From NCBI GenBank assembly GCA_963848295.1, contig CAWKDB010000011.1, positions 128,001 through 192,000 on the forward strand: a stretch of 64,000 nucleotides of DNA, in the 5' to 3' direction. A program made the position numbers and the translations under genes. This stretch comes from an uncultured delta proteobacterium (lineage in GTDB: Bacteria; Myxococcota_A; Polyangia; Haliangiales; Haliangiaceae). Every line of letters begins with the position of its first letter. Position 1 is the stretch's first letter. Shown here piece after piece: positions 21,852 to 37,649 of this stretch. A model generated the notes under the pieces. The model was given only the letters and a program-made list of their open reading frames with translations. It searched no databases and had not been told where the DNA came from.

Positions 21852-22763
21852 TTACGACGACGGTCGCGTACCCTTGGTGATGCCGTTGAGCTCGCAGAAC
21901 GCCTTGTAGTAACCGTACGAGGCGAACCGCAGCGTGGTGTTATCGTACGCGAGCGCGTCGCCGAGAACGTCTGTCTGCCTGTGGTTTGCGCAGACCGGCG
22001 TCTCGAGGCCGCGCAGCCCGTCGCGGAGCTTCTCGGACGCCGACTTCTCGAGCGGGCTCGGGTTGCGGGACGATCTCCACATAAGCGCGTTTAGGACGGC
22101 GCCATCGCCGGCGTTACCTCGGTCGCAGTTGCCGATCTTTCGGCGCAGCGGCGCGTCGGTTGCGCAGCAGACCGCGCACATTGCGGGGAACTGACACTCC
22201 AGCGTGTGGTCGGCATCGTCACCGCGCTTGACGAGGGGCAAGTACTGGTCCGACGTCACGTGGTAGTGCGTGAAGCAGGTGTCGCTTGCGTCGAGCGATT
22301 GCTCCCTGACCTCGAGTGTATCGATGTGGATCCGGAGGTACGCGATGCAAGCGCCGCATTCCGTCGGGTCCCCCTCGTCCTCGGCCTTCTGCAGCGCCCG
22401 CCGTCTCGCCTTCTTCGAGAGCTTCGCCAGCTCCTTCGTCGGCGCCGGTTGCTCCGAGAAGCTGCGCGCGCGCTCGATCCCGCACACGGGGCAGGCGCTC
22501 GCGATCACCGGGGTGCGCCGTGCCGTGGCGAACAGCCAGACGCCGAACGCGGCGATCGCCAGCCCGGCGATCGAGAGCAGACCGCCGCAGAGCGTACCGC
22601 CGAAGTTGTCGCCGAACGGATCCTCGACGTGACATAGCCCGATGAACCAGTGGATCGCGAGCACCGCACAGAGCGGTGACACGACGAAGATGATGATCAT
22701 CTCCTTCTGCGGAATGCCCTTCCAGTAACTGAGCCGCTTGCCGACGACGACATTCTGCGTCAT
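21852..22763 (-). CDS. hypothetical membrane protein with CxxC motifs; start codon lies at the group II intron junction
   Basis: Two TM segments; CPVC, CGAC, CAVC. The ATG is made of the intron-terminal AT plus G. Confidence 0.7.
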   Translation of the reverse strand: MTQNVVVGKRLSYWKGIPQKEMIIIFVVSPLCAVLAIHWFIGLCHVEDPFGDNFGGTLCGGLLSIAGLAIAAFGVWLFATARRTPVIASACPVCGIERARSFSEQPAPTKELAKLSKKARRRALQKAEDEGDPTECGACIAYLRIHIDTLEVREQSLDASDTCFTHYHVTSDQYLPLVKRGDDADHTLECQFPAMCAVCCATDAPLRRKIGNCDRGNAGDGAVLNALMWRSSRNPSPLEKSASEKLRDGLRGLETPVCANHRQTDVLGDALAYDNTTLRFASYGYYKAFCELNGITKGTRPSS

Positions 22764-23740
22764 TGGTAGATCTACTTTCCCTCGTTATGAGTTTCCGTAC
22801 GACCCCCGTAGAAACCGTGCTTGCGGATTTCCCGTACACGGCTTGCGGGGGGGCTTTCGAGCCAGCGGTCCTGGACAGTCTCCGGATATTCGACGGTGCC
22901 GCGCAGGCGATGGAGTCCGAGTCCGACGAAGTAGTCGCGATCCCATCTCTCGACGGCTGCGGGAGCGAGCTGCCGACTCACACGTTTGATGCGGAGTCCG
23001 CGCAGTCGCTCGTACACGTAGCTGTCGATCTGGTTGAAGCTGCGCGCGGCGTTGCCCGTGGCGAAGTAGGCTCCCCAGCCTCGCAGGATGGGGTTGAGGT
23101 CCTTGATGACCACACGGACATCCGCGTGACATCGTCCTCTTGGTGTCCGATCCTTCACCTTCTGTCGGATCCGCTTCATCGCGCGCTGCGACGGCTGGCG
23201 ATGCAGTGCCCTCTCTCGTGGCCCTTCCCTCCCGCGGCGTTGTTCGTCGCCGCGATCATCGGTACTACGACCCCGTCGGACTTCCGCTGCGCGATGTCGC
23301 CCTTGGCCTTCAGCCTGTTGACGTCACCTCGCCCTGACTCGGGCTGCGCAGACGGATCTCTCGTGTTCCGCGATGATCCTTGCACGCGTGCTGCTCCCCA
23401 TACCCCGCCGAGATCGTCATCGCCTTCCGGTGCTTGCGACGCCAATATTGCCTTCGCTGCGACATGACCAGCTCGGCTCTCGGACTGTTTCTCTGTCGAG
23501 GCTGCAGGCTTCACTTCACGTTGCGGCCCGCGTGCTTGCTTCGAGGTGATCAGCTCTTGCTGCCTCCCTCGCTTTCGATGCCCGGCTTCAGCCGTCGGGA
23601 TCTCTCCCTCTGCTGCGGGCCTGCTACTCGGCGCTCCAGCGCTTACCGAGACGGGACTTGCACCCGCTGGATCATCACAGCCTGACCCCGGGTTCGTCAG
23701 CCCTTCGGGCCGACGGTCTCCGTCGTCGTCACGACGTACC
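22762..23740 (-). mobile_element. group II intron, internally deleted (RT domains missing, domain X retained)
   Basis: Domain V AAGCCGTGTACGGGAAATCCGCAAGCACGGTTT. Domain VI GGGGGTC/GATCT-A-CC with bulged A at 22767, ending CCAAT. 5' region (G)GTACGTCGTGACG... with DI-III-type elements (GGGTGCAAGTCCC, GGAAGTCCGACGGGGTCGTAGTACC, GGAGGGAAGGGCC). Boundaries +/-1 nt. Confidence 0.88.
22772..23179 (-). pseudogene. group II intron maturase domain X remnant
   Basis: PSQRAMKRIRQKVK..VIKDLNPILRGWGAYFATGNAARSFNQIDSYV; no YADD RT domain upstream. Confidence 0.85.
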
Positions 23741-23763
23741 ACGCAGGAGAGGTTACACCGAGG

Positions 23764-26700
23764 CTAGCTCCAGGGCAGGTTTCGCGTCTGCGCGACCTTG
23801 TCGTAGGTCATCTTGAATGCCCAGTTCAGCTGCTCGTTGGCGCTGTGCGCCAGCTCGTCGAGCTCCCTCGCGTCCGACTTGACCTTACCGGCCGAGCTCA
23901 TCAACACCTGCGTGTTCGCAGGGCTCATGCTGTTGACGCCACTCATGTCGCTCGTCACCTTGGCCGCGTGCTCGCGGACTGCCGCGACGACCTCGTCGCC
24001 TGTCCTGAGTTGCGCGAGGACTTTCTTCGCAGAGCGCTTGTTCTCGAACGTCGAGTTGAGCTTGTTGGTCTGCGCGGTCTGCGACGCGACGAGCCTCTGG
24101 ACGACCGTGCTCGCTTGCGATGACACGTAGGACGCCGCGTTGTGCACCTTGCCCACAGCGGCGGCGGATATCTTGGGCTCCTTCGGTTTGTCTTTGGCCT
24201 TGGCCTTGGCCTTACCCTTCTTCGGGCCGGCCGATAGCGCCGGGGTCGCAGCGGCAATCGGCGCCGGCGGCGGCGCTACCGCGGCCACTGGCCCCTTCTG
24301 GGTAGCTGCGTCGGCTTGAGCCTTCATCTTGTTCGCCTTCTCCGCGGCGACTGCCACCGCGAGACCCGCGAGGAACGTCCGCGCCATGTCTTGCTGCTTC
24401 GCTATGTCCTTCTCGGTGTCCTCGACATCCTTCACGAACGTGGCCGCGTCGTGGACGTTTTGGTCGCACTGCCTTGCGTCGTCGAGGGCCTGATCGGCGT
24501 AGCTCTTCGACTGGGCCTTGACGGACATCGCCGTGTCCATCGTCTGCTTGGCCTTGTCCTGGCCCTGGGTGCCGACCAGCTTCGAGAACTGCATGCGATT
24601 GTGCAGCGCCGTCGTGTACGCGCGCATGTCGCCCATGCTCACGCCGCACAGCCCCTCGAGCACTAGGCTGGCGATCTTGTCCTGGATCCACCCGAAGACC
24701 TTCGCGGCCTTCTCGGCGGCCCACGTCTTCACGTACCACCAGATCCGTTTGATGGGATGCCAGTGGCTTGGCTTCTCGCCGACGTCGACCTTCGGCTGGT
24801 TCTTGCTGGCGCTGTTGGCCTTGCCATCGTCCTGTTTCTTCTCGCCCGCACCGGCCTGCTGATCGCCCTTCTGGGCCGAGGCGCCGGCCGCGGTGGCCTC
24901 GGCGATGGTCCCGTTGATTCCGATCGAATGATCCATCGCCTGCGCCTGTTTCAGCGAAGCGTCATCACCCGCCTGTGCCATTGTCGCGACGGTCAGGAGC
25001 GCCTTGTGCTTGGCCTCCTGCTGCGACTTCTGGAAAGCGTAGGCGACGAGCTTCATCCGCTGCAGATCCTTCGCAGCTTTCGCGAACTCGCCGTCAGCTC
25101 CGGACAGCTTGGGCCAGTACACGAGCTCGGGGACCTCGGCGAGCTTGTCTTCCGGAGCACTACCCGCGGCGGGCGCAGGTTTGGGTGCGGGTGACGGTGC
25201 GGGTGACGGTGCGGGTGCGGGTGACGCGTTCGCGCTGGGGGGGGCGCCCGAGTCGTTCGAGCTCGTCGACGCCGGATCGACCGACATGGTCGGCTCGTCG
25301 TTGCCGTGGCTGTGCTGCGCGTCATGACCCTGGTCCCCGCCGTCCTGTGCGTCGTGACCCTGGTCCCCGCCGTCCTGTGCGTCGTGACCCTCGTCGCCAT
25401 GTTCGTCGGCGCCCTCGTCGAGGCCGTCGAGCATGCTCTCGACGTGCTCGTAGACCGCGATCTCCGGAACCTCACCCCAGGACCACGCATAGATGGCCTC
25501 GCGCTGCTCCGACTTCTCGAGCGTCTCGGCCTCGGCATGACCGCCCTGCTGAGCCTCGATCTGCTTGTTCGCGGCTTCAGCTCTCTCGCCGCTCTCGCTC
25601 TGGAACTGCGCCGCCGCGATGACCTCCATCGTCTTGCCCTTGATGTGCCACATGGTCTCCGGTAGCTCACCACCGTTGGCCTTGATCGCGATCAGGTGAC
25701 GCTGGTCCGCCTCGTGGCGGAGCTTCTTGGCCTCGTCCTCCGCGACCTTGCGCTGGTCCTGCGTAATGTTCTTGTCCTTGAGCCGATTCGCAACGATCTC
25801 CCGCTCGCCCTCGATGACGTCGGTCTCCTCCTGGAACTTCTTCGGGTCTTTCCGGAAGTCCTCGATGTTCTTCTTTGTGGTCGCTTCTTCCGCTTCCGTC
25901 TCGACTTTTTTCTCCCCTCGCTCCTTCGTGAAGTCCTTCCCGCCCTCCTCCTGGGCGCCAGCGACGGCCTTCTCTTCGCCCTTCTCGAGCTTGTCCGCGT
26001 GCTTACCGGCGGCGCGCGCGTTGCGTACGTTCTCTTTCGGCACGTGCCCGTCTTCGTCCCGGTGGTCGGCGATCTGGTTGTTCTGGTACTCGCGCGAGGA
26101 CGAGATGTCTCGGTCGATCCTCGCGCGCTCCTGGTTGCCCGCGTTCTTCCCGGCGTTGCTCTCGAGGGCTGCGTCGAGCTCTTTCTTGGAGTTGTCGGCG
26201 AACTTGTCGATCTGCTCCGTATGCTTTGCGGAAAAGCTGACCTTCTCGACGCGCCCGGCCGCGTTCTCGCCCATCTTCTCGCCGAAGCCGTCGACGCCCT
26301 TGACGAAGCTATTTTGCGATACCTTGGTCGCCCGAGCCTCGACCCCCTTCATGAAGTCCGAGTTGTTGATCTTCGTGATCAGCTTGGTACCGCGGATCTT
26401 CTCGCCAAGCGTGGCCGGTGCGCTCCACAGCTTGCTCATCATGCCCGGGCCCTCGGCCTTCTCGAGCCCGATGCCGAGCTTGTAGCCGATGTTCTTCGCC
26501 CAGTTCGCGACCGGGCCGAGTGCCTTCGCGGCGAACGTTCCGATCTTGTTCTTGACCCCTGTGAACAGCTTCCCGATCACGCCTTTCGAGGCGCCCTGGA
26601 ACCCCTTCATGAAGCCGGGCCCATAGGTCATCGCGAGGCTGAGCACGTGCCCGCCAGCCGACGTCGCCTCGTTCATCATCATGTCGGCGGTCGCGGCCTT

Positions 26701-27699
26701 TTCTTCGTTGGACGCACCCTTGCCGATCTGCTTCGCGAGCACGACGCCATTGAGCCCGGTCAAGATTCCCGACAACACGAAGCCGATCGCGTCGCAGATG
26801 ATGCCGATGACGTTGAGCACGCGCGCGACCGCCTCCACGGCGGCGCCGAGTGGCGGCAGGATCATGGCGAGCAGACCCACGATCGTGAGGACCATGCCGA
26901 TCTTGCCGCACACGTTCCCGACGATCGAGACGACGCTCTGAAACTTCGACAGGCCGCGCATGATCGAGCCGAGGCCGCCCTGGACTTTGTCGTACGGGTT
27001 CGCGCCAAAGATCGCGCCGACGTCCTTCTTGCCCAGGAAGTTGATCAGGCCGCCCTTGGCAGCCTCCATGCCACTCGCGCCGTTCTGGACGTACTTCTCG
27101 ATCTGGCCGTCGTAGCCTTGCGCGATCGCGGCCATCTCCTTGATCTTCGATAGCCGCTCGTTGGTCTCGGTTGACTTGTGCGGGTAGGCGTTGAGCCACC
27201 CGTCGAGGTTGCCATCGCCGGACATCGCCGCGGCGAGGACGAGCTCCCTCGGCGGCTTGAGTGCCGCGTCGGGGCCGGGCATCGCGGGTTTGGCGGCCTT
27301 ACCGGGAGCTTTGGGCGCTGCCGCGCCGCCCCCGGCCTTTTGTGGCGCCTTGGGGCCAGAAGTCGGAGGCTTGGGAGTGACGACCGATGGCGTGTGCGCG
27401 GCGCCAGCATCGACTCGGCCCGGCGGGCTGTCCTTGGCTTCCTTCGCGACGTCCTTGGGGTTGTTCTTCGCTTCTTCGGCCGCCTTCTCGCGCGCTTCCT
27501 TGGTCTGCTCTTCGTACTCCTCTTTATTGATCGGCGCGTCGGAGGCTTTGTCCGCAAGGCCCGACACGTAGGCCGCGGGGAAATGGGCGGCGATCGCCGT
27601 CTCGACCTTCTGGATCGCGGCGTCGTCCTTGGCCGCGTCCTTGTAGGTGTACTTGACCTCTAATGCCTTGGGGTCGAGAGGTTTGTCGGCGGTTGCCAT
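23764..27699 (-). CDS. 1311-aa hypothetical Lys/Ala-rich protein with central hydrophobic hairpin and coiled coils (putative membrane-active effector)
   Basis: Long ORF with protein-like composition; hydrophobic segment at ~aa 250-325; acidic repeats; Pro-Ala linkers. Confidence 0.85.
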   Translation of the reverse strand: MATADKPLDPKALEVKYTYKDAAKDDAAIQKVETAIAAHFPAAYVSGLADKASDAPINKEEYEEQTKEAREKAAEEAKNNPKDVAKEAKDSPPGRVDAGAAHTPSVVTPKPPTSGPKAPQKAGGGAAAPKAPGKAAKPAMPGPDAALKPPRELVLAAAMSGDGNLDGWLNAYPHKSTETNERLSKIKEMAAIAQGYDGQIEKYVQNGASGMEAAKGGLINFLGKKDVGAIFGANPYDKVQGGLGSIMRGLSKFQSVVSIVGNVCGKIGMVLTIVGLLAMILPPLGAAVEAVARVLNVIGIICDAIGFVLSGILTGLNGVVLAKQIGKGASNEEKAATADMMMNEATSAGGHVLSLAMTYGPGFMKGFQGASKGVIGKLFTGVKNKIGTFAAKALGPVANWAKNIGYKLGIGLEKAEGPGMMSKLWSAPATLGEKIRGTKLITKINNSDFMKGVEARATKVSQNSFVKGVDGFGEKMGENAAGRVEKVSFSAKHTEQIDKFADNSKKELDAALESNAGKNAGNQERARIDRDISSSREYQNNQIADHRDEDGHVPKENVRNARAAGKHADKLEKGEEKAVAGAQEEGGKDFTKERGEKKVETEAEEATTKKNIEDFRKDPKKFQEETDVIEGEREIVANRLKDKNITQDQRKVAEDEAKKLRHEADQRHLIAIKANGGELPETMWHIKGKTMEVIAAAQFQSESGERAEAANKQIEAQQGGHAEAETLEKSEQREAIYAWSWGEVPEIAVYEHVESMLDGLDEGADEHGDEGHDAQDGGDQGHDAQDGGDQGHDAQHSHGNDEPTMSVDPASTSSNDSGAPPSANASPAPAPSPAPSPAPKPAPAAGSAPEDKLAEVPELVYWPKLSGADGEFAKAAKDLQRMKLVAYAFQKSQQEAKHKALLTVATMAQAGDDASLKQAQAMDHSIGINGTIAEATAAGASAQKGDQQAGAGEKKQDDGKANSASKNQPKVDVGEKPSHWHPIKRIWWYVKTWAAEKAAKVFGWIQDKIASLVLEGLCGVSMGDMRAYTTALHNRMQFSKLVGTQGQDKAKQTMDTAMSVKAQSKSYADQALDDARQCDQNVHDAATFVKDVEDTEKDIAKQQDMARTFLAGLAVAVAAEKANKMKAQADAATQKGPVAAVAPPPAPIAAATPALSAGPKKGKAKAKAKDKPKEPKISAAAVGKVHNAASYVSSQASTVVQRLVASQTAQTNKLNSTFENKRSAKKVLAQLRTGDEVVAAVREHAAKVTSDMSGVNSMSPANTQVLMSSAGKVKSDARELDELAHSANEQLNWAFKMTYDKVAQTRNLPWS
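25184..25391. repeat. intragenic tandem repeats (12-bp PAPS unit; 30-bp GHDAQDGGDQ unit, ~2.5 copies)
   Basis: GGTGCGGGTGAC repeated at 25184-25225; GTCRTGACCCTGGTCCCCGCCGTCCTGTGC repeated with 30-bp period at 25321-25391. Confidence 0.9.
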
Positions 27700-27711
27700 A
27701 GGGTTGTCTCG

Positions 27712-28881
27712 TCAGCGCGAACGGAACGTCTGGCGGGCACGGGCGGCCTGGTTCACTTTTTCTGCAATGTCGGCAAACGTCTCCGGGCCGATCCGGTCAG
27801 CAAGGGCAGCTATGTACGGGCGAAACAGGTCGGTTGCAGCCGAACCCAGCTTGTCCTTGAGCGAACCATGAGCCTCTGCAAATGTACGGTACGCCGAGGC
27901 CAAATCTCCCTTCATCTCGTAGATCTGCGACATCAAGGCGACAGCGGACGCATAGCGGGGAAGATCGCCCTGGGAAACGGCGCTCTGGGCGATCTCGAGA
28001 CACCGGTCCAGCGCGGCCTGGGTCTGGCCTTTCTGAGTCAGCAAGCCGACTTGGCCGACCAGGGCGGCCATGCGTAGCGAATCGAGCCCGTGCTCTAGCG
28101 CGGAGTCGCGTGCGACTTGAAGGTGTTTCTCCGCCTCGTCCCGACCGACCTGATCATCCCGCTGCACGAGCGCGCCGGCGAGTGCGATACGCATCTCGAG
28201 CTCGTCCTCGACCGCGTCGACCCGTTTGGCGATCGCAACCGCCTCGCGCAACGCCACGCACGCGCGCTGGTGATCACCGAGCGCGAGCGCCATGGCGGCG
28301 CGCAATTGTCGGGATGCGAAATCGGTCTCGAGTAGCTCGTCTTGATCCTCGTCGGGCGTCATCGAGGGAAATACGTCGAGCCGCTCCCTGGCGCGTACGT
28401 GCTCGCCCTGCTCTACCGCGAGCTCCACCCAGCCGAGCGCGAGCCGCATGACGGCGCGCCGGCCGGCGAGCGTCGTCGGCTCCTCGGCGGTCGCGTCGCT
28501 CACTTCTACCAGCCGGGTTTCGGCCGCGGCGAAGTCCTTGCGCCGGATCAGGGTGCGGGCGAGGAGTGTACCTGCGTCGAGCATGCAATTCAGATCGCCC
28601 GCAACCCGGTCGCGGGCGCGGCCGACAAGCTGCTCGACGCCCTCGAAGTCCCCATCCGCCAACTTGACGTGCGCTAGCCGGAGGAGGATCCGGCCCTCGA
28701 GCGCAGGCTCGGCGAGTCGATCGACGAGTGCAGCCGCCTCTTCGAGCGGCGCACGTACGACGGGCTGGCGATGGCCGAGAATCGGCTCGGCCTCCGCGAG
28801 ATCGAGCAGCGCGATCGCGAGCGCTTCTCCGCCGGTCGCGCGGGCAAGGTCGACACGTGCCCTCACCTGTGCGAGCGTCAC
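27712..28881 (-). CDS. TPR-like alpha-helical repeat protein
   Basis: Repeated helix pairs (e.g. MSQIYEMKGDLASAYRTFAEA); TACAGT 6 nt before GTG; 12 nt upstream of the 1311-aa gene. Confidence 0.75.
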   Translation of the reverse strand: MTLAQVRARVDLARATGGEALAIALLDLAEAEPILGHRQPVVRAPLEEAAALVDRLAEPALEGRILLRLAHVKLADGDFEGVEQLVGRARDRVAGDLNCMLDAGTLLARTLIRRKDFAAAETRLVEVSDATAEEPTTLAGRRAVMRLALGWVELAVEQGEHVRARERLDVFPSMTPDEDQDELLETDFASRQLRAAMALALGDHQRACVALREAVAIAKRVDAVEDELEMRIALAGALVQRDDQVGRDEAEKHLQVARDSALEHGLDSLRMAALVGQVGLLTQKGQTQAALDRCLEIAQSAVSQGDLPRYASAVALMSQIYEMKGDLASAYRTFAEAHGSLKDKLGSAATDLFRPYIAALADRIGPETFADIAEKVNQAARARQTFRSR

Positions 28882-28905
28882 CGCTAGACTGTACCACGAG
28901 GCACC

Positions 28906-30045
28906 ATGCTCCTCGGCAGCGCCGCTCGTGCGATGCTGTTCGTGCGAATGACGCGGGATGCGGCGCAGCTGATCCGGATCGCGAGGTTGCGCCGGTTCGT
29001 TGGGGTGTTCGCGCGCGGCGGCGATCGCGAGGCGACCGCGGCTGCGCTCGCCTCGCTCTCGGCGGCGTCGCAGGCGAACGGCTTCGCGGGCGACGCGCTG
29101 CTGCGCGCACGCCAGGCCGCGGAGCTGTTGTGCAGCGACGACGATCCGGAACCGCGCGCTCGGTCGCTGCTCCACCTGGGCGCGGTGTGTCTCGACACCG
29201 GCGATGGCGAAGCATCGATCGCGGCGGCCGAGCTCGCCGCCGAGCTCGCGGCAACGCTCGAAGAGCCGATCAGGTCGCAGTTGATCGGCTGTGCGTCACT
29301 GCTCGGCGGCATCGCGCACTCGCTCGACGGCGATGACGCTCGGGCACGCGCGGCGTTCGACGACGCACGTGAACGGATGGTCGCCGCCGAGCAGCCGGAA
29401 GGCGCCGCGCTCGCGCTCACCCAACAAGGCCTGCTCGACGTCGCCGCCGGCCGGCCCGACGCGGCCGAGCTGTGCTTCCGGTTCGCTCAGGAGTTCTATC
29501 GCCGCGCCGATCGCGCAGGTGCGGTCGCGGAGGTCTCGGCGCTCGCCGCGCGAGCGCTTGCCGAGGCCGGCCTCGCGAACGTCGATCGCTGGTACGTCGA
29601 GGCGATCGCCGACGCCGACGCGACCGGGTCGGCGCGGCTCGCGGCGGAGCTCGTGGTCGAACGTGCGCTCCGGCTCGAGCGCGACGGCCTGCGCGACGAA
29701 GCGCTCGCGATGGCGGCGGATGCCGCACGCCGCTGCAAGCGGCTCGCGGATTCGCGCGAGCTCGTGATGCGCGCGCGCCTCGTGTCGGCACGGCTGACCG
29801 CCGACCCCGGCGACGTGCTTCGTCACCTCGAAGCCGCGTTCGAGATCGCGCTCGACGTCCGCGATCCCGAAGCGCTCGGCGGCGTCATGGAAGTCGTCGT
29901 CACCGCGCTCGTGAACGGCGGGTTCGCGAGCTCGACCGGCGCGGGCTGGCGGCTCGTCGACCGGTTTCGCGAACGGCTCGGCGCCGCCGGGTTCGCGCAC
30001 CTCGCGGATGCCGCGACGGTCGCGCTCGTCGATCTTCGCGAATAG
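28906..30045 (+). CDS. TPR-like alpha-helical repeat protein
   Basis: ARSLLHLGAVCLDTGD, LLGGIAHSLDGD and ALTQQGLLDVAAG repeats; divergent from 28881. Confidence 0.72.
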   Translation: MLLGSAARAMLFVRMTRDAAQLIRIARLRRFVGVFARGGDREATAAALASLSAASQANGFAGDALLRARQAAELLCSDDDPEPRARSLLHLGAVCLDTGDGEASIAAAELAAELAATLEEPIRSQLIGCASLLGGIAHSLDGDDARARAAFDDARERMVAAEQPEGAALALTQQGLLDVAAGRPDAAELCFRFAQEFYRRADRAGAVAEVSALAARALAEAGLANVDRWYVEAIADADATGSARLAAELVVERALRLERDGLRDEALAMAADAARRCKRLADSRELVMRARLVSARLTADPGDVLRHLEAAFEIALDVRDPEALGGVMEVVVTALVNGGFASSTGAGWRLVDRFRERLGAAGFAHLADAATVALVDLRE

Positions 30046-30080
30046 CCGGCGCGCGGTGTACGCTCGAAGCCAGGCACACG

Positions 30081-32177
30081 ATGGCCGGCGACGACGAGGT
30101 TTTCGGATACCAGGACGGAGGCGAGCAACTCTCCGACTACGCGGAGCGCTTCGGGTTGCTGTTCGACCGCTTGCACGCGATCCGCGACGTCATGCCCGAG
30201 GCGGCGGCGGTCGTGCCGCCGCGGGTCAAGCGCGAGCTGCTCGAGGGCGCGAGCGAGAGTCTGTTCGCGATCAACCGTCGCATCATCGATCTCGACGCCG
30301 CGATCGAGCGCCGCACCGAGGTCTCCGAGGAGCTCGGCATCGCACTTCCGCTCGAGCTGCTGCGCGGCCGGTTCGCCCTCGTGGAGCTCGACATCCAGGT
30401 GTTGTCGATGATGTTCGCGCTCGAATCGGGCGGCGCGTTCAACCCCTACGACACGCGCAGCACGCGGACCGACCGGGTCGATCCCGAGGTCGCGTTCTTC
30501 ATGGCGTTGCTCGGTGGCGGCGAGCGCGATGACGCCGAGCGCGCGCGCGCACGATTTCTTCCCGACGCGCCGCTGATCGAGTCCGGCATGGTGCTGCTCG
30601 TCGGCGATGCCGACTCGCCGATCATCTACAAGCGGATCCGGCTGTCGGAGCGCACGCTCGAGTTTCTCTCGGGCAGCTTCGCGCCGCCGCCGTCGTTGCT
30701 CGGCACGGTCGCGACGTTCGCCGCGACACCGCCTGGTGCCGACGCGTTCCTGTTCGAGGATCCCGCGCTCGTCGGCCAGATCGCACGCACGCTGTCGAGC
30801 CCCGAGCAGATCGTGATCTTGCGTGGCGCGCCCGGCGTCGGGCGCAAGTCGCTGGCCGGCGCCGCCGCGCACGAGCTCGATCGCGCGATGCTCGTCGTCG
30901 ACCTGTCGCGCGTGCTGCTTTCGGCCGACGAGCTCGACCGAACGCTGCGCACGCTGTTTCGCGAGGCCCGCATGCAGGGCGCGGTGCTCGTCCTCGATCG
31001 CGCCGACGAGTTTGCGGACCGCGAAGGTCAAGCCGCGCTATGGCCGTCGCTCACGAACCGGATCGCGCGTTCGTCGCTGCCGATCGCGCTCGTCTGCGAG
31101 AATCTCCCGAAGTGGCTCGACCGCCTGCAACGCGTCCGGGTCGAGCTCGCGGTGCCGTTTCCGTCCGAGGAGATCCAGCACCGGCTGTGGGTCCGGCACT
31201 TGCCGCCGAGCTTGCACCTCGAGCCCGGGCTGTCGATCGATTCGATCGTGCACATGTACTCGTTGTCGTGCGCATCGATCATCGCGACCGCGGACGAGCT
31301 GTCCCGCACCGACCACATCTACGCGCGCGGCGGTGTGGTCGATCAGCAAGGGCTCGTCGACATCGTGCGCACCCGGCTCGCTCACGAGCTCGGGGCGCTC
31401 GCCGAGGTCGTGCACACCACGCTCGAGTGGAAAGACGTCGTGTTGTCGGACGACGTCTACGAGCGCGTCATCGAGTTCCTCAACTTCGCGCGCCACCGCG
31501 GCGTCGTGATGCGCGAGATGGGCTTCGGCCGCAAGCTCGCGTACGGGCGCGGGCTGTCGGCGATGTTCTCGGGCCCGCCCGGTACGGGCAAGACGATGAT
31601 CTGTACGCTGCTCGCCAAAGAGCTCGGGATGGAGCTCTATCGCATCGATCTGTCGCAGGTCGTCAACAAGTACATCGGCGAGACCGAGAAGAACCTCGGC
31701 AAGGTGTTCGACGAGGCGGCGCGCGGCCAGGTGATGCTGCTGTTCGACGAGGCCGACTCGATCTTCGCGAAGCGCACCGAGGTCAAGTCATCGCATGATC
31801 GTTACGCGAACCTCGAGGTCAACTACCTGTTGCAACGCATGGAGGGCCACGAAGGCATCGTCGTGTTGACGACGAACTCCGAGAGCGCGATCGATAAGGC
31901 GTTCCTGCGGCGCATTCGGTTCCGCGTGCGTTTCCCGTCCCCGAGCGATGCCGATCGCGCGCGGCTGTGGCGCGGCATGGTGCCGAAAGAGGTCAAGCTT
32001 GCCCCCGATGTCGACTTCCAAGCACTCGCGGTGCGGTTCCCGATGGCCGGCGGCAACATCATGAACGCGCTCGTCCGCGCGTCGATCAGCGCGACCGCGA
32101 GCGGTCAGCCGGTCGGCCAGCAGCACTTGATCTGGGCCGCGGAGCTCGAGTACAGCGAGATGGGATTCCTCGCATGA
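30081..32177 (+). CDS. AAA+ ATPase of the Afp15/Pvc15 (eCIS-associated) type
   Basis: N-terminal LRGRFAL winged-helix-like region; degenerate first P-loop GAPGVGRKS; second module GPPGTGKT, DLSQVVNKYIGETEKNL, LFDEADSIF, RYANLEVNYLLQRME, IDKAFLRR. Confidence 0.9.
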   Translation: MAGDDEVFGYQDGGEQLSDYAERFGLLFDRLHAIRDVMPEAAAVVPPRVKRELLEGASESLFAINRRIIDLDAAIERRTEVSEELGIALPLELLRGRFALVELDIQVLSMMFALESGGAFNPYDTRSTRTDRVDPEVAFFMALLGGGERDDAERARARFLPDAPLIESGMVLLVGDADSPIIYKRIRLSERTLEFLSGSFAPPPSLLGTVATFAATPPGADAFLFEDPALVGQIARTLSSPEQIVILRGAPGVGRKSLAGAAAHELDRAMLVVDLSRVLLSADELDRTLRTLFREARMQGAVLVLDRADEFADREGQAALWPSLTNRIARSSLPIALVCENLPKWLDRLQRVRVELAVPFPSEEIQHRLWVRHLPPSLHLEPGLSIDSIVHMYSLSCASIIATADELSRTDHIYARGGVVDQQGLVDIVRTRLAHELGALAEVVHTTLEWKDVVLSDDVYERVIEFLNFARHRGVVMREMGFGRKLAYGRGLSAMFSGPPGTGKTMICTLLAKELGMELYRIDLSQVVNKYIGETEKNLGKVFDEAARGQVMLLFDEADSIFAKRTEVKSSHDRYANLEVNYLLQRMEGHEGIVVLTTNSESAIDKAFLRRIRFRVRFPSPSDADRARLWRGMVPKEVKLAPDVDFQALAVRFPMAGGNIMNALVRASISATASGQPVGQQHLIWAAELEYSEMGFLA

Positions 32178-32497
32178 AGAAGGTGCTCGGCATCCTCGGC
32201 ACGATCGGCGTCGTCGCGTTCTTCGTGCTGCTCGCTTACCTCAAGTGGTGGAACGTATTCGGCCAGCACAAGATGGGCGGATCCTGTAGCAACCGCACCG
32301 ATTGTCGATCGGTGTACTGCCTCGAGCACGAGAAGACTGGCGGCACCGAACAGAAGAGCGACGGCTACTGTACCGACAAGTGCGACACGGATAGCGACTG
32401 CGAAGATGGGCTCGTCTGCGTCGTGCCCTCGCAAGCCGCGCTCGACGACTTGCCGCGCTACGGCCGACCTACGAAGCTGTGCGAACGAGTCCGATGA
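32174..32497 (+). CDS. small Cys-rich membrane-anchored protein
   Basis: ATGA overlap with the ATPase stop; N-terminal TM helix; CSNRTDC, CTDKCDTDSDCEDGLVC. Confidence 0.8.
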   Translation: MKKVLGILGTIGVVAFFVLLAYLKWWNVFGQHKMGGSCSNRTDCRSVYCLEHEKTGGTEQKSDGYCTDKCDTDSDCEDGLVCVVPSQAALDDLPRYGRPTKLCERVR

Positions 32498-32507
32498 ACG
32501 AGTCGCG

Positions 32508-34472
32508 ATGGCCGAAATCAATCGCCTGAATCGCGCAGGGCTGCGCCGGCTCGTCGCGCTCCATCCTGACGGTGGTCGGATCGAGCTCCGATCGAAGCTG
32601 CTCGCGCCTGCCATCGCCGGACCGCTGGCTCCCGCCGACGCCGAGCAACGGTTCGCCGACTACTTGCTCGATCGCTGCGCCCAGCCGATGCGCGCGCACA
32701 CGCCTGCCGACGAAGCGTGGTTCGAGCGCTCGTTGCTCATCGAATCGATCGCACCGGGCAACGCGATCGCGGTCGCCGATGAGCTCGCGGCGATCGTCGC
32801 GGCACCGCGCCTGGTCGCCGACGGCCGGTTGAGCGAGCAAGCGATAGCCGCTCGGTTCGCGCTCCGCGCCGACGAAGCGATCGCGGCGGCGGTCGCGACG
32901 CTTCCGCCCGATGGCGCCGTCGCGGTGATCCGCGAGCTCGCGACGGCCGCGGGCCCCGACGAGGACCGGCTGCACCTCGCGACCTTGCAGGCCGGGCGGG
33001 CCCTCGCGTGGCGCGGCGATGTGATCGATAGCGACGGCGGCGGTGCGCTCGTCGATGAGTTGCTGGCGTTGCTCGAGCGCACGAATCCGCGTCCGCTCCT
33101 CGGAGTGCTCGCTCCGATCCTCGGCGCGATCGCGGCATCGCGAATCAAGGTCCGCAGCGCGGTGCTCTCGCGGCTCAGCGAGATGAAGTGGCGAATCCTC
33201 GATCGGCGATCAGGCACGTCGTTCCTCGGCGAGTTCCGCGCCCTCGATCAGCCTCGGAGGTTGCCCGACGAGGACTACTTCATGACCCTCCCCGACCGCC
33301 ATGTCGCCGAGACCGCCGCGTGGATCCTCGGGCGTGCCGCCGAGCGGCTCGATCGCGACGGGTTCGTCGCGCTGCAGAACCAGGTGCTCGACGGCGAGCT
33401 CGGCTCGACGTTGCTGCCATCGTTCGTCGACGGTCTGATCGCCGGTGCGTCGCTGGCGCCGCTCGTCGAGCTCGGGACGATGCTATTGGCCTCACGCGAC
33501 GAAGAACCGTGCGTGCTCGGGTTGCGCATCGCCGCCCAGCTGCCGCTCGACGAATGCGCCGACGCCTGTCTCGCCCACCTCGACGACCATCGCCGCCTTG
33601 TGCGAATCGGCGCGATCCGCGCGGTGACGATGCTCGAGCCCGAGCGCGCGGTGCCTGCGCTGGTCGCGCGACTCGACGATCCGGATCCGGGCGTGTGCGC
33701 CTGCGCCGCGCACGCGCTCGTCGAGCTCGGCCAGCGCGATCGAGTGGCCGCCCGACCGATGCCGGGCGAGGTCGCGATCGGCAAGGCGCGCGAGCGCACC
33801 GCGGCCGCACGCGCCGCGATCGGAGATGCGAGCTTCGAGGTCGTCACGGCGCTGTTGCCGATCGTCGTGACCGAGACCGAGCGCGACCTCGAGCCCGGCG
33901 ATGCGCCGTTGCTCGCCGCGCTGCGGACGAGCCTGCTGGGGAGCGCGGACGGCGTTCGGATGGCGGCGACGCTCGTGCGCGAGATCCCCGACGCGCTCGC
34001 ACTCGTGGCACTCGCCTTGGCGGGCGATGCGGACAGCCCGTCGATGGCGCTAGCCACCGGGCTCCGCGACGAGCTCGCGTCCGCGCTCGATCCGCTGATC
34101 GACGCAGGCGGCGAGCCGGGCATGATCGCGCTCGACACGCTCAGCCGGTTCTCGCTCGGCGACGCGGCGCTCGTCGCACGGATCGTCGACGCCACTCGGC
34201 GCACCGAGGGCTACGCGGCGCAAGCGCTCACCGCACTCGCGCAGGTTCGACGCCGCAGCGAGCTCGGCGCCGAGTTTCTCGCCCCTTGGCTCGACAACCG
34301 CGAGCACATCGCCGCCACGGTGATGGCAGCGGCCGTCGCGGGCCTGGTCCTGCCCACGGGCCACCGCCTGTGGGAACAGGTCCGCGAGCTGTTCGCGCTG
34401 GGCAGTGTCGCCGCCGCGACCGCATACGCCGCGCTGGTTCGAGGTGCTCGCGTGCGCTGCGACGACAAATGA
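32508..34472 (+). CDS. HEAT-repeat protein
   Basis: LDDHRRLVRIGAIRAV, AVPALVARLDDPDPGVCACAAHALVELG. Confidence 0.8.
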   Translation: MAEINRLNRAGLRRLVALHPDGGRIELRSKLLAPAIAGPLAPADAEQRFADYLLDRCAQPMRAHTPADEAWFERSLLIESIAPGNAIAVADELAAIVAAPRLVADGRLSEQAIAARFALRADEAIAAAVATLPPDGAVAVIRELATAAGPDEDRLHLATLQAGRALAWRGDVIDSDGGGALVDELLALLERTNPRPLLGVLAPILGAIAASRIKVRSAVLSRLSEMKWRILDRRSGTSFLGEFRALDQPRRLPDEDYFMTLPDRHVAETAAWILGRAAERLDRDGFVALQNQVLDGELGSTLLPSFVDGLIAGASLAPLVELGTMLLASRDEEPCVLGLRIAAQLPLDECADACLAHLDDHRRLVRIGAIRAVTMLEPERAVPALVARLDDPDPGVCACAAHALVELGQRDRVAARPMPGEVAIGKARERTAAARAAIGDASFEVVTALLPIVVTETERDLEPGDAPLLAALRTSLLGSADGVRMAATLVREIPDALALVALALAGDADSPSMALATGLRDELASALDPLIDAGGEPGMIALDTLSRFSLGDAALVARIVDATRRTEGYAAQALTALAQVRRRSELGAEFLAPWLDNREHIAATVMAAAVAGLVLPTGHRLWEQVRELFALGSVAAATAYAALVRGARVRCDDK

Positions 34473-34530
34473 GCACGCGACTTCGCCGTCACGTTTCCGT
34501 GCACCTCCACCTGCCGCCTAGGATTGCGGC

Positions 34531-35673
34531 GTGACCGATTCGGCGCAAGTGCCAGCGATCGAGATCCTGCGCTGTCCGAGTTGCTCCGGCGCGGTGCCAC
34601 TCGGCGATGGCGAGACCGTGCGCTGTCCATTCTGCGGCACCGAGGTCCCGCTCCCCGAGCCGCATCGCGCGCTGCGCGACGCCGAGCGCGCCGAGCGTGC
34701 GACGCGCAAAGACGCGGAGGCGTACTACGCGGCGCTGGCGAAGCCGCCGAACGTCATCGTTCGCGCATTCGGCCGTCCGGGCGTCGGGCTCGCGTTGGTG
34801 ATCCTCACGCCGTTCATCTTCATCGGCTCGCTCTTGCTGAGCGTGCCGTTGCTGGACGTGTTCGAGCGAATCCGGCACGAGTCGTTTCTCGACGTCCATC
34901 CAGACAAGTGGATCGCGGTCTATCAGTGTTTGTTCGCGAGCATCCTGCTCGCCGTGTTCGGCTTGATCGGCGGGTTCGCGCGACGGACGGCGGTAGGTCG
35001 CGTGCTGCTGCGCGCGGCGCTGATCGCCAAGCCGCCCGAACGTCCCGGCGGCCCCGCGCTGTGCCGCTCTTGTAACGCACCGCTGTTCGTACCGACCGGC
35101 GCCGAGGCCGTGCGCTGCACGTACTGCCGCAGCGACAACATCATCGCGATCAGTGCCGCCGACATCGCGGCTCAGGCGGTCGCGCAGCGCGGCGTCCAAG
35201 AGGCGTTAGCCGAAGCGAGGCGGAGCGGACGCGATGACCTCAAGCACGTGCGGTGGTCGATGTTCTGGCGGTTGCTCTTGCTCTCGACGCTGTTCGTCTT
35301 CATGTGGGTTCCGATGATCAGAGCAAACGGCTCGATCCACGACCCGACACCGTGGGACGACTGGCGAACCGACATCACCCCCCGCTACTACTCGAGCGTC
35401 GCGGACTGCACGAACAACTTCCATCGGGTCGCGATGCGTCGCGGCGAGACGTTCCACGCGACGCGGATGAACGACGAGCGGGCGCCCCTCGAGGTCGACG
35501 TGGAGGCGCACATCCCTGGTTCGGGCATCGAATACTGGCAGCCGCTCGGCCCGACGCTGCGTTGGCCGCCCGGTGTCCCGTTCGACTTCGTGGCGCCGCA
35601 CACGGGCTGGATGTACCTGTGCTTCCGCGGGCGCGCGACGCGGATCACCGGCACGGTCGTCACGCGCCCGTAG
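34531..35673 (+). CDS. double zinc-ribbon membrane protein
   Basis: CPSC..CPFC and CRSC..CTYC; three TM segments; TAGGAT 6 nt before GTG. Confidence 0.8.
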   Translation: MTDSAQVPAIEILRCPSCSGAVPLGDGETVRCPFCGTEVPLPEPHRALRDAERAERATRKDAEAYYAALAKPPNVIVRAFGRPGVGLALVILTPFIFIGSLLLSVPLLDVFERIRHESFLDVHPDKWIAVYQCLFASILLAVFGLIGGFARRTAVGRVLLRAALIAKPPERPGGPALCRSCNAPLFVPTGAEAVRCTYCRSDNIIAISAADIAAQAVAQRGVQEALAEARRSGRDDLKHVRWSMFWRLLLLSTLFVFMWVPMIRANGSIHDPTPWDDWRTDITPRYYSSVADCTNNFHRVAMRRGETFHATRMNDERAPLEVDVEAHIPGSGIEYWQPLGPTLRWPPGVPFDFVAPHTGWMYLCFRGRATRITGTVVTRP

Positions 35674-35809
35674 ACGTTCGCGACCTCGCGATCGCGGCGA
35701 CTGCCGCGCTCCGCGAGCTGCGCGCCTGACCCGCGGGTCCGCACGCGGTGTTGATTCGCGGCGCGCGGACGTCACGTGCCCCTGCAACCGAATATAGTTG
35801 GCGACGTAG

Positions 35810-37649
35810 ATGCCGAGCCTCCAACCTCACACCGCGGCGATCGCGGCCAGCGCCGACGGCCGTTGGCTCGTGTGGGGCGAGCCCGGGCGGTTGGTGCTAT
35901 TTGACCTCGCGAAGCGCACGCAGGTCGCCGAGGTCGCGCTCGATCTCGAGCCACCGTTCGAGCTCGCGGTGACGTCGACCACGCTGTTCGTGATGCAAGC
36001 CCAGAGCGGCAGCACGCTCGTTCGACTCTACGATCTTCCCGAGATGCGCGCCGGCGTCGAAGCGCGGCTCAAGGGCGAGTCGCGTTTCGGCGGGCTGTGC
36101 GGATCGTTCGCGATGTTGCTCGGTAGTAACGAGCCGTTGACCGCGGTCGATCTGTCCCAGCTCCGGTCGGCCGCGCTGCCCGCTCGCGGGCCGATCCAAG
36201 TCGTCGCCGAGCTGTCGCCGGACACGATGCTCGTCGGTGCGCGCGGCAAGCTCGACGTGTGGAACCTCGATGAACGGCGACCGACCCATCGACTCGCGCT
36301 CCCGCTCGCGAACGATGTCGCGTTCGCCGGCGTGATCTCGAGCGGCAAGTTGCTGTGGCTCGCGTCGAGTGGACCGCGCGGCGCGATCTCCGTGCTCCGG
36401 CTGTCGGACGGCAAGCTGCTCGCGCCATCTGCGGCGGGTGGCACGATCAAGGCGATCGTGGGCGATGCTGCTACGACCACGGTGGTCGCCGCGATCCAAC
36501 CGGAGGGTGGCAAGACGGTCCAGCTGATCGCGCTCGATCTCCACGCGCAGACCAGCCACCCCCTGGCGTTCGACCATCCGATCTCGGCGTTCTGTCTCGC
36601 CGGCGAAGCGGTGGCGATCCAATCGGAACGCGCGCAGCCGGTGCTGGTCGCGATCGCCGCGAGCGCGAGCGGCGCTGGCGCCAAGCCGTTGAGCGGCCCG
36701 GACGCGGACCTACCGGAGCCGGCGCTCGGCGAGCTCGCCCCCGAGGATGGCGTCGTGAATGGCGGCGAGCCGGCGCCGAACGATCTGTCCGATCGCCTCG
36801 ACCACTGGCGCTCGCAGGTCAAGGCCGCGGTCGTCGCGGCGCCGCCGAAGCCGCGCAGCCCGCTCGAGACCCTCGCCGACGAGCCGCGCAGCCGATCACG
36901 CGCCGAGCTCTACGCGTGGGGCTTGTCGGCGCGCGCGCGCACGACGACGACACCACCGCCGCCGCCGCAGGGCTGGCGCCTCAACGATTCTCGCGAGCCG
37001 GTTCGATCTCGACATGCGGTCGAGGACCTTGCTCGCCTTGCTCTACGCGGGCTGGCTCGATGGCGAAGGCAAGACCGGCCTGCCGGTCGGCGTCGTCGCG
37101 CGCGCGCTCGGCAACGATGAAGACGCGTGGGTCGAAGCGCTCGCGCAGGGCCGCCTCGGTCGCATGGGCTGGGTGCGGTCCGCGTACGGGCGCACGCGGC
37201 TGTATCGCGAGATCGGGCGATTTCTCGACGAGGCGCCGGCGCGCATCGCGATCGTGGCGCCCGCCGACGACGCGGTCGCATCGCTCGCGCCTCCGCTGAC
37301 CGCCATGCTCTGGCGGATCGTGGATCGCAGCGCGTTCGACGAGCAGCTGCACGCGCTCGCGAACCGCTTGCGCGAGCCGGTCGCGACGATCGAGCTCAGC
37401 GCGGTGCCGGCCGCGCGCCTCGCCGACCGCTTGCTCGAGGCGCGACTGCACGGCGCGCTACCGATCCTCGTGCCGTCCGAGGGCGCGCCGTTCGACTCGC
37501 GCTTGCTCGACGGTGGCGGGCTCGTCGTCGCGTTCGGCACGTCGCTCGCCGACGCTGGCCTCCCGCTGTGGGCGCCGCCGGAGCTCGCCGCGAACGAACC
37601 GGTCGAGACCGAGCCCGAGGCCGCGGCGAGCTCGACCGCGCCGGCGTAG
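35810..37649 (+). CDS. beta-propeller-like protein fused to a degenerate Afp15-like N-terminal region; apparent +1 frameshift at ~36988
   Basis: WD-like strands (IAASADGRWLVWG..LVLFDL, LDVWNL). Deleting one T in GATTCTC joins to LASRFDL..EARLHGA. Confidence 0.7.

Follow-up and report, generated by a model that had tools for sequence, protein, structure and literature searches.

The window analysed here is a stretch of 64,000 nucleotides from an uncultured delta proteobacterium of the Haliangiaceae (assembly GCA_963848295.1, contig CAWKDB010000011.1, positions 128,001 to 192,000). Eight protein-coding genes, denoted A to H, lie between positions 23764 and 37649 in a divergent arrangement, with A and B running leftward and C, D, E, F, G and H running rightward. 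Six of them (A to F) form a conserved cassette that travels as a unit and is apparently undescribed; no description was found in the literature searched, a scope outside which lie most subscription papers, supplements and the eCIStem and dbeCIS tables. The cassette probably serves an extracellular contractile injection system (eCIS) whose structural genes are elsewhere in the genome. The genes, together with one predicted segment of A, are:

23764-27699, minus strand: gene A, 1311 aa, an all-helical candidate cargo protein without a Pfam family
26731-26937, minus strand: predicted transmembrane hairpin of A (residues 255-323), a peak of hydropathy and conservation
27712-28881, minus strand: gene B, 389 aa, a TPR protein (TPR_12 and TPR_MalT below the Pfam cut-off)
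28933-30045, plus strand: gene C, 370 aa, TPR-like (TPR_12 at E 0.008, below the cut-off)
30081-32177, plus strand: gene D, 698 aa, an Afp15/Pvc15-type ATPase by its Pfam winged-helix domain (WHD, PF22977) and AAA matches
32174-32497, plus strand: gene E, 107 aa, a Cys-rich protein with a single predicted transmembrane segment, overlapping D at ATGA
32508-34472, plus strand: gene F, 654 aa, a HEAT-repeat protein (HEAT_2 above the Pfam cut-off)
34531-35673, plus strand: gene G, 380 aa, a membrane protein with Pfam zinc ribbons, not a conserved part
35810-37649, plus strand: gene H, a beta-propeller, a winged helix and a shortened AAA module lacking Walker A, frameshifted near 36985 and without a Pfam family

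This arrangement agrees in full with a preliminary description of the locus, which gave the same eight genes in the same order and on the same strands, including the divergent layout and the ATGA coupling of D and E. Its statement that no sheath, tube, baseplate or DUF4157 gene is present was confirmed by a Pfam scan, in which none of the eight proteins matched any of these and no eCIS structural gene (sheath, tube, spike, baseplate or terminator) was found in the cassette locus.

Conservation was surveyed in 118 genomes of the family with a completeness of at least 85%. Two unpublished genomes, G010 and G085, were used only in the 118-genome tallies, with matches in those for tube genes and the H family and none in the others. 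Gene A is present in 30 of the 118 genomes. B and E are each present in 33, comprising 29 of the 30 genomes with A and only four others, and F is present in 35 (29 of the 30, and only six others). Among the 32 fetched A loci, B lies directly upstream of A in 29 and the remaining three stop at a contig edge, while A, B, C, D and F are found together in 20 and constitute the conserved five-gene core; E is the next gene downstream of a stand-alone A in nine loci. Given that kin genomes are not independent, these figures are counts rather than tests. The correlation between the identities of A and D across 20 loci (rho 0.88) is not used as proof either, since host phylogeny can produce such a correlation. 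Two paralogous cassettes with matched parts occur in each of G002 and G006, which indicates a unit beyond shared ancestry. Beyond the family, 2 of 249 further genomes of the class contain B, and in one of them A lies beside B with no ATPase nearby. In the Myxococcales isolate Baikal-deep-G131, A, B and a homologue of F (hhalign 93.8%) are side by side.

The gene-neighbourhood check proposed in the preliminary description thus gave a divided answer: A to F co-occur far beyond chance, G does not, and H is not specific to the module. That the genes are chance neighbours at a variable chromosomal site is an extremely improbable reading. Its support is that G and a group II intron remnant beside A are passengers and that the gene order of the cassette varies between subclades; for A to F it is refuted by co-occurrence, by adjacency, by the matched paralogous cassettes and by the same triad of genes in distant metagenome contigs, described below.

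Protein D is composed of a winged helix and two AAA modules, the first degenerate (GxxGxGRK, DRAD) and the second, D2, intact (GPPGTGKT at 498, KYIG at 530, LLFDEAD at 553 and RRIR at 610). It presents 34% identity over 77% of the length to the Afp15 of pADAP, the gene of which lies between tape-measure and DUF4255 genes. D yielded 129 plasmid matches, and the five that were opened, including pADAP, all lie beside genes of contractile injection systems (CIS) or DUF4157 genes. Against NCBIfam models of housekeeping AAA proteins, all scores were far below cut-off. The D orthologues form a clade with 100/100 support within a myxobacterial radiation to which six of the seven D-type paralogues scattered in the genome also belong; the seventh, a 210-aa fragment, was left out of the tree. 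Given that the tree has no outgroup from outside the CIS ATPases, the membership of D rests on its layout and its neighbours. On these sequence grounds D is an Afp15/Pvc15-type ATPase, as the preliminary description had proposed from its two modules. All seven paralogues are orphans on contig C10 (at about 115k, 562k, 1012k, 2054k, 3482k, 3498k and 4141k), away from structural genes. Longer proteins of 1004-1119 aa, with a long N-terminal extension followed by WHD, AAA and AAA, were also observed beside A-like or DUF4157 genes (L074:16215-19574, L077, L079 and L082), and in G129 such a full-length protein is found beside an orphan Pvc16 gene.

Protein A has 73 homologues, the informative source names of which are Kofleriaceae or Myxococcales. 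Along its length, a Pro/Ala-rich, poorly conserved stretch (about 75-150) precedes the hydrophobic hairpin (255-323), basic helices, a variable charged middle (480-770, absent from one G129 copy) and a long coiled-coil arm (855-1135). The hairpin, defined by Kyte-Doolittle 19-mers above 1.6, is the most conserved part of A, with a column identity of 0.71-0.83. In the AF2 model, residues 150-1311 are helical almost throughout (pLDDT 71, pTM 0.40). No match was found for A in Pfam or NCBIfam, nor a significant one in PHROG, and no known toxin domain was found in it. Likewise, the model has no match among PDB folds at E<=0.001, profile A3 has 0 matches among PDB sequences, VIA-align returned only generic coiled coils (best Z 11.5), and the Atlas search with residues 150-480 reached 0.88 at best, with no family.

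The relation of A to DUF4157, a mark of eCIS toxins according to the available parts of PMC8213781 and PMC11297309, is part of the evidence that links the cassette to eCIS. In 20 of the 32 loci A stands alone (1039-1603 aa where complete); in eight it is followed by DUF4157 (eCIS_core) and a long variable body, reaching up to 4705 aa; the remaining four are cut short. P0042 and P0062 are also fusions of A with DUF4157, the latter ending in Colicin D (E 2e-11). In the fused relatives DUF4157 comes after an A module of 1350-1450 aa. The seven fused forms in the tree make up one clade nested among stand-alone forms (FastTree support 0.945); hence the window's A is not a truncated remnant, and the stand-alone form is the ancestral state within the close family. 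The fused bodies differ and have been exchanged, those of G090 and G118 matching the source genome's two scattered DUF4157 giants at 33-39% identity over more than 1000 aa. These giants, of about 2000 aa and with tandem DUF4157, lie at C2:478297-484446 and C10:4150706-4157191, with a DDE transposase fragment at the end of the second. Several tails of fused A proteins (L045, L046, L040 and L072) have Rossmann/oxidoreductase-like C-terminal regions, with Pyr_redox_2 at E 0.013 in one, and in G026 the gene after the fused A carries a TIGR02996 domain below the cut-off.

The reverse order, with DUF4157 before an A-like module, is found in four loci of the family, and in two of them a B homologue lies nearby along with a full propeller-WHD-AAA-AAA ATPase. 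Of 90 distant matches 31 were scanned, and 14 of these carry DUF4157, one with DUF4157 after A and the rest with DUF4157 first. When one distant DUF4157 group is aligned against A, the hairpin aligns (hhalign 98.7%) and so does the C-terminal arm (81%), while the two middles do not match. Nine of the 17 metagenome loci of that group were examined: the A-like gene is followed by a B homologue in 9/9 and preceded by an Afp15-type ATPase in all six that have upstream DNA; the open reading frames (ORFs) upstream of these ATPases have no Pfam match. A plasmid search with P0110, a member of the distant family, gave matches only to DUF4157. The ties of the A module to DUF4157, present in either order and also among distant relatives, point to eCIS. 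Side observations on the distant family include a conserved, His-rich central domain between its two A-like arms (P0110 residues 770-970, alignment A6), for which Atlas gave sub-0.9 leads only, to HNH-type nuclease toxins. Its 620-aa and 240-aa neighbours were considered as homologues of F and C and set aside as weak (hhalign 67% and 27%), and a 265-aa gene considered as a homologue of E has no match to it.

A full eCIS structural locus was found in the source genome on contig C2 (902000-933500). It comprises Pvc16, two sheaths, tubes, hub, spike, gp25, baseplate J and four FHA proteins, together with a 537-aa non-Afp15 AAA protein accompanied by DUF1257 and DUF2997, a small DUF4157 protein and a pentapeptide protein; between the tube genes lies a 1294-aa low-complexity protein, where a conserved gene of 1294-1586 aa is found. 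The gene order is the same in seven genomes (the source, G011, G026, G102, G112, G132 and G139), and no D-type ATPase was found at this conserved locus in any of the seven. Afp15 is carried by more than 85% of eCIS loci according to the portions of PMC6899500 available. Tube genes are present in 114 of the 118 genomes, including all 30 with A. Two orphan long tube-like (gp19) genes also lie far from the eCIS locus, at C10:71983-72921 and C10:1532808-1533746.

Given this locus, A might instead be an alternative tape-measure or lumen protein that alters the particle's length or forms the injection channel without being toxic itself, a reading we consider quite improbable. The all-helical model with its transmembrane hairpin fits such a role, the top BFVD match of the model is a tape measure protein (E 1.1e-3), as are many of the next rows, and Lineage II eCIS generally lack Afp14, as far as the available text of PMC6899500 tells. 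Nevertheless, the BFVD match has a TM-score of 0.08 and an rmsd of 52, values of generic helix matches, PHROG gave no tape-measure match, and A is present in 30 of the 118 genomes against 114 for the tubes, between the genes of which the conserved 1294-1586 aa gene already stands.

The search for secretion loci, also proposed in the preliminary description, thus turned up a complete eCIS but no T6SS (type VI secretion system) sheath, as VipB was not found in the source genome, and no injectisome; the assembly is 85% complete. Two FHIPEP loci exist, one in a flagellar cluster and the other an orphan, and their neighbours have no match in the related loci. The flagellar cluster (C10:3357000-3385000) has flagellin-, hook- and export-like genes as read from sequence starts, FHIPEP being the only one searched.

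Hydrophobic translocators of the type III secretion system (T3SS) are transmembrane-hairpin proteins with class II TPR chaperones, and motifs of the type P/V-x-L-x-x-P bind such chaperones. A is similarly a hairpin protein encoded next to what appears to be a dedicated TPR partner. As to the motif, P104 and V106 of A are nearly invariant, but 33 of 50 sequences show the full pattern, which falls within a Pro-rich stretch and comes with no background rate. A role of A as translocator of a type III or type VI system, with B as its class II-like chaperone, is very unlikely. To the adjoining hairpin and TPR genes may be added the two FHIPEP loci and an Atlas lead to an SseC cluster at 0.77, which is at chance level. 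However, the FHIPEP loci are flagellar or orphan with neighbours unmatched in the related loci, neither VipB nor an injectisome was found, B is 389 aa, and the linkage to DUF4157 and an Afp15-type ATPase points elsewhere. The T3SS and T6SS option is thus unsupported. The proposal of a detached cargo-loading module for a machine encoded elsewhere finds support in the full eCIS locus without an Afp15-type ATPase and in the relatives that fuse A to DUF4157, and the machine can be specified as an eCIS.

The explanation we regard as probable is that D and B load A, a membrane-active cargo, into an eCIS particle encoded elsewhere, the locus being a detached eCIS cargo cassette. D is read as the loader, B as the hairpin's chaperone and A as the cargo on account of DUF4157 marking eCIS toxins and of findings in AlgoCIS, where, according to the available part of 10.64898/2026.05.27.728243, the Afp15 homologue Alg15 is required for cargo loading and not for assembly, and where the loading signal is a disordered N-terminal region and cargo is loaded without need of DUF4157. 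What was observed is the gene content, the linkage, the domain layouts, the fusions and a structural locus without an Afp15-type gene, whereas every physical step is inferred. B, probably with C and F, would keep the hydrophobic hairpin of A in the cytoplasm, as their constant linkage suggests. By analogy with Alg15, D would grip the flexible N-terminal region of A and unfold A into the tube. After firing, the hairpin and amphipathic helices would enter the target membrane, and A would then act either as a pore-type effector or as a conduit for DUF4157 toxins loaded alongside it; in one subclade such toxins are fused onto A. B would be the dedicated chaperone of A, and F an adaptor, a role that C and perhaps H may share; C is weakly related to B (hhalign 68%). 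E is a candidate immunity or accessory factor and may protect the producer. A complex prediction for A(1-480) with B scored 0.00, which gives no verdict either way.

Several points weigh against this explanation. Fusions of A with up to 4705 aa are large for a tube. No structural gene adjoins the cassette in the source genome or in the nine distant metagenome loci, and neither A in the source genome nor its neighbours carry DUF4157 in the Pfam scan. Parts of the cassette also occur apart: F and H are side by side without A to E at that site in G028, G113 and G134, G002:C273 holds A, B and F with C and D not nearby, and G275 holds A and B with no ATPase nearby. The ATPase tree, in addition to having no non-CIS outgroup, has long reference branches. 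Given the seven D-type paralogues and the different AAA protein in the structural locus, D is not required to explain the missing gene there, and given tube genes in 114 of the 118 genomes, the co-occurrence of A with eCIS carries no information.

The main rival is a tube-independent membrane toxin or lysis device built of parts borrowed from eCIS, in which D would free A from B so that A inserts in the membrane of the producer or of a touching cell. We hold this to be unlikely. At every locus examined but one the cassette lies apart from structural genes, the exception being G129, where a Pvc16 gene directly adjoins it, a point in favour of the eCIS reading; stand-alone A is ancestral within the close family; the membrane protein E travels with A; and Streptomyces Sle1 acts on its own producer, according to the part of PMC13277306 available. 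Yet the A module is joined to DUF4157 in both orientations, in distant lineages too, and all 30 genomes with A have tube genes.

In comparison with Afp15, Pvc15 and Alg15 of the Afp, PVC and AlgoCIS systems, D shares the winged helix, the two AAA modules with intact D2 and the 34% identity to the pADAP protein, but it lies away from the structural locus as one of eight paralogues, tied to a specific cargo gene and to two TPR genes, one HEAT gene and one small membrane gene. The closest described cargo proteins are Sle1 of Streptomyces lividans and Tme of Streptomyces davawensis, both at their own CIS locus and, in the available parts of PMC13277306 and PMC11126660, with no TPR partner or private ATPase described. 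A resembles Sle1 and Sle2 of the S. lividans SLP, compared by features only, as a large coiled-coil cargo with a predicted transmembrane hairpin and no DUF4157 of its own that is nevertheless DUF4157-linked; the long coiled coil and the hairpin, features of Sle1/Tme-type effectors, are both present in A by model and hydropathy. As far as PMC13277306 is available, Sle1 and Sle2 flank the sheath gene and have a small DUF4157 partner, while the locus of A is flanked by neither and has instead a TPR partner and its own ATPase. With Tme (PMC11126660) and the DUF4157 toxins (PMC8213781, PMC11297309), the fused relatives of A share a long DUF4157 protein with transmembrane segments, coiled coil and variable C-terminal toxin; in the available parts of these sources DUF4157 is N-terminal, whereas in the fused relatives it follows the 1350-1450 aa module, which ancestrally and in the window is a separate protein.

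The remaining two genes do not define the system, G being a local passenger and H a genus-wide gene. The preliminary description had counted both as parts. For G, only one weak match (27%) was seen in the related loci, and the H family is present in 87 of the 118 genomes. Its account of H as a dead-ATPase propeller is supported: H has a WD40-like propeller, a winged helix and a shortened first AAA module without Walker A, ending at Walker B (hhalign 67%, E 5e-5). The coding sequence of H changes frame near 36985, a site that no public contig covered. Since the G002 orthologue is a single 593-aa ORF and 11 of 85 test queries, including housekeeping genes, match the source assembly in more than one frame, the frameshift is probably an assembly error, likely an indel. 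A second propeller-WHD gene, paralogous to H, lies outside the cassette at C11:453369-454967. The idea that H corresponds, in shortened form, to the full propeller-WHD-AAA-AAA proteins (1004-1119 aa) was not substantiated, the propeller parts aligning at 4% probability. Two further features lie downstream of A:

21852-22763, minus strand: gene Z, a Cys-rich membrane protein without a Pfam match
22761-23741, minus strand: group II intron remnant directly after A, outside the system, a maturase-domain fragment without reverse transcriptase (GIIM PF08388, E 1e-16)

Homologues of Z are found downstream of A in G002, G030, G006, G018 and G115, of the window's subclade. A longer copy at C11:619000-621016 shares 82% identity with the intron remnant.

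Direct experiments are restricted by the fact that the hosts are soil myxobacteria not in culture. In the choice and loading of eCIS cargo, the known players are the ATPase and a disordered N-terminal signal, with DUF4157 having no assigned role. The cassette brings to notice A, a large unannotated scaffold found alone, before DUF4157 and after DUF4157. A more far-reaching version, possible though doubtful, is an eCIS with a class of chaperoned translocators and cargo-specific loaders: A would be a membrane conduit with a TPR chaperone of its own to keep it soluble and an Afp15 paralogue of its own to load it, and would carry separately encoded DUF4157 toxins across the target membrane, and the Kofleriaceae would arm one shared, loader-less particle via plug-in cassettes, each with its own ATPase. 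With a defined set of cargo, chaperone and loader, specificity becomes open to paralogue swapping. The cassette also indicates that eCIS cargo and loaders can lie at a distance from the structural genes, where catalogues built on operons would overlook them.

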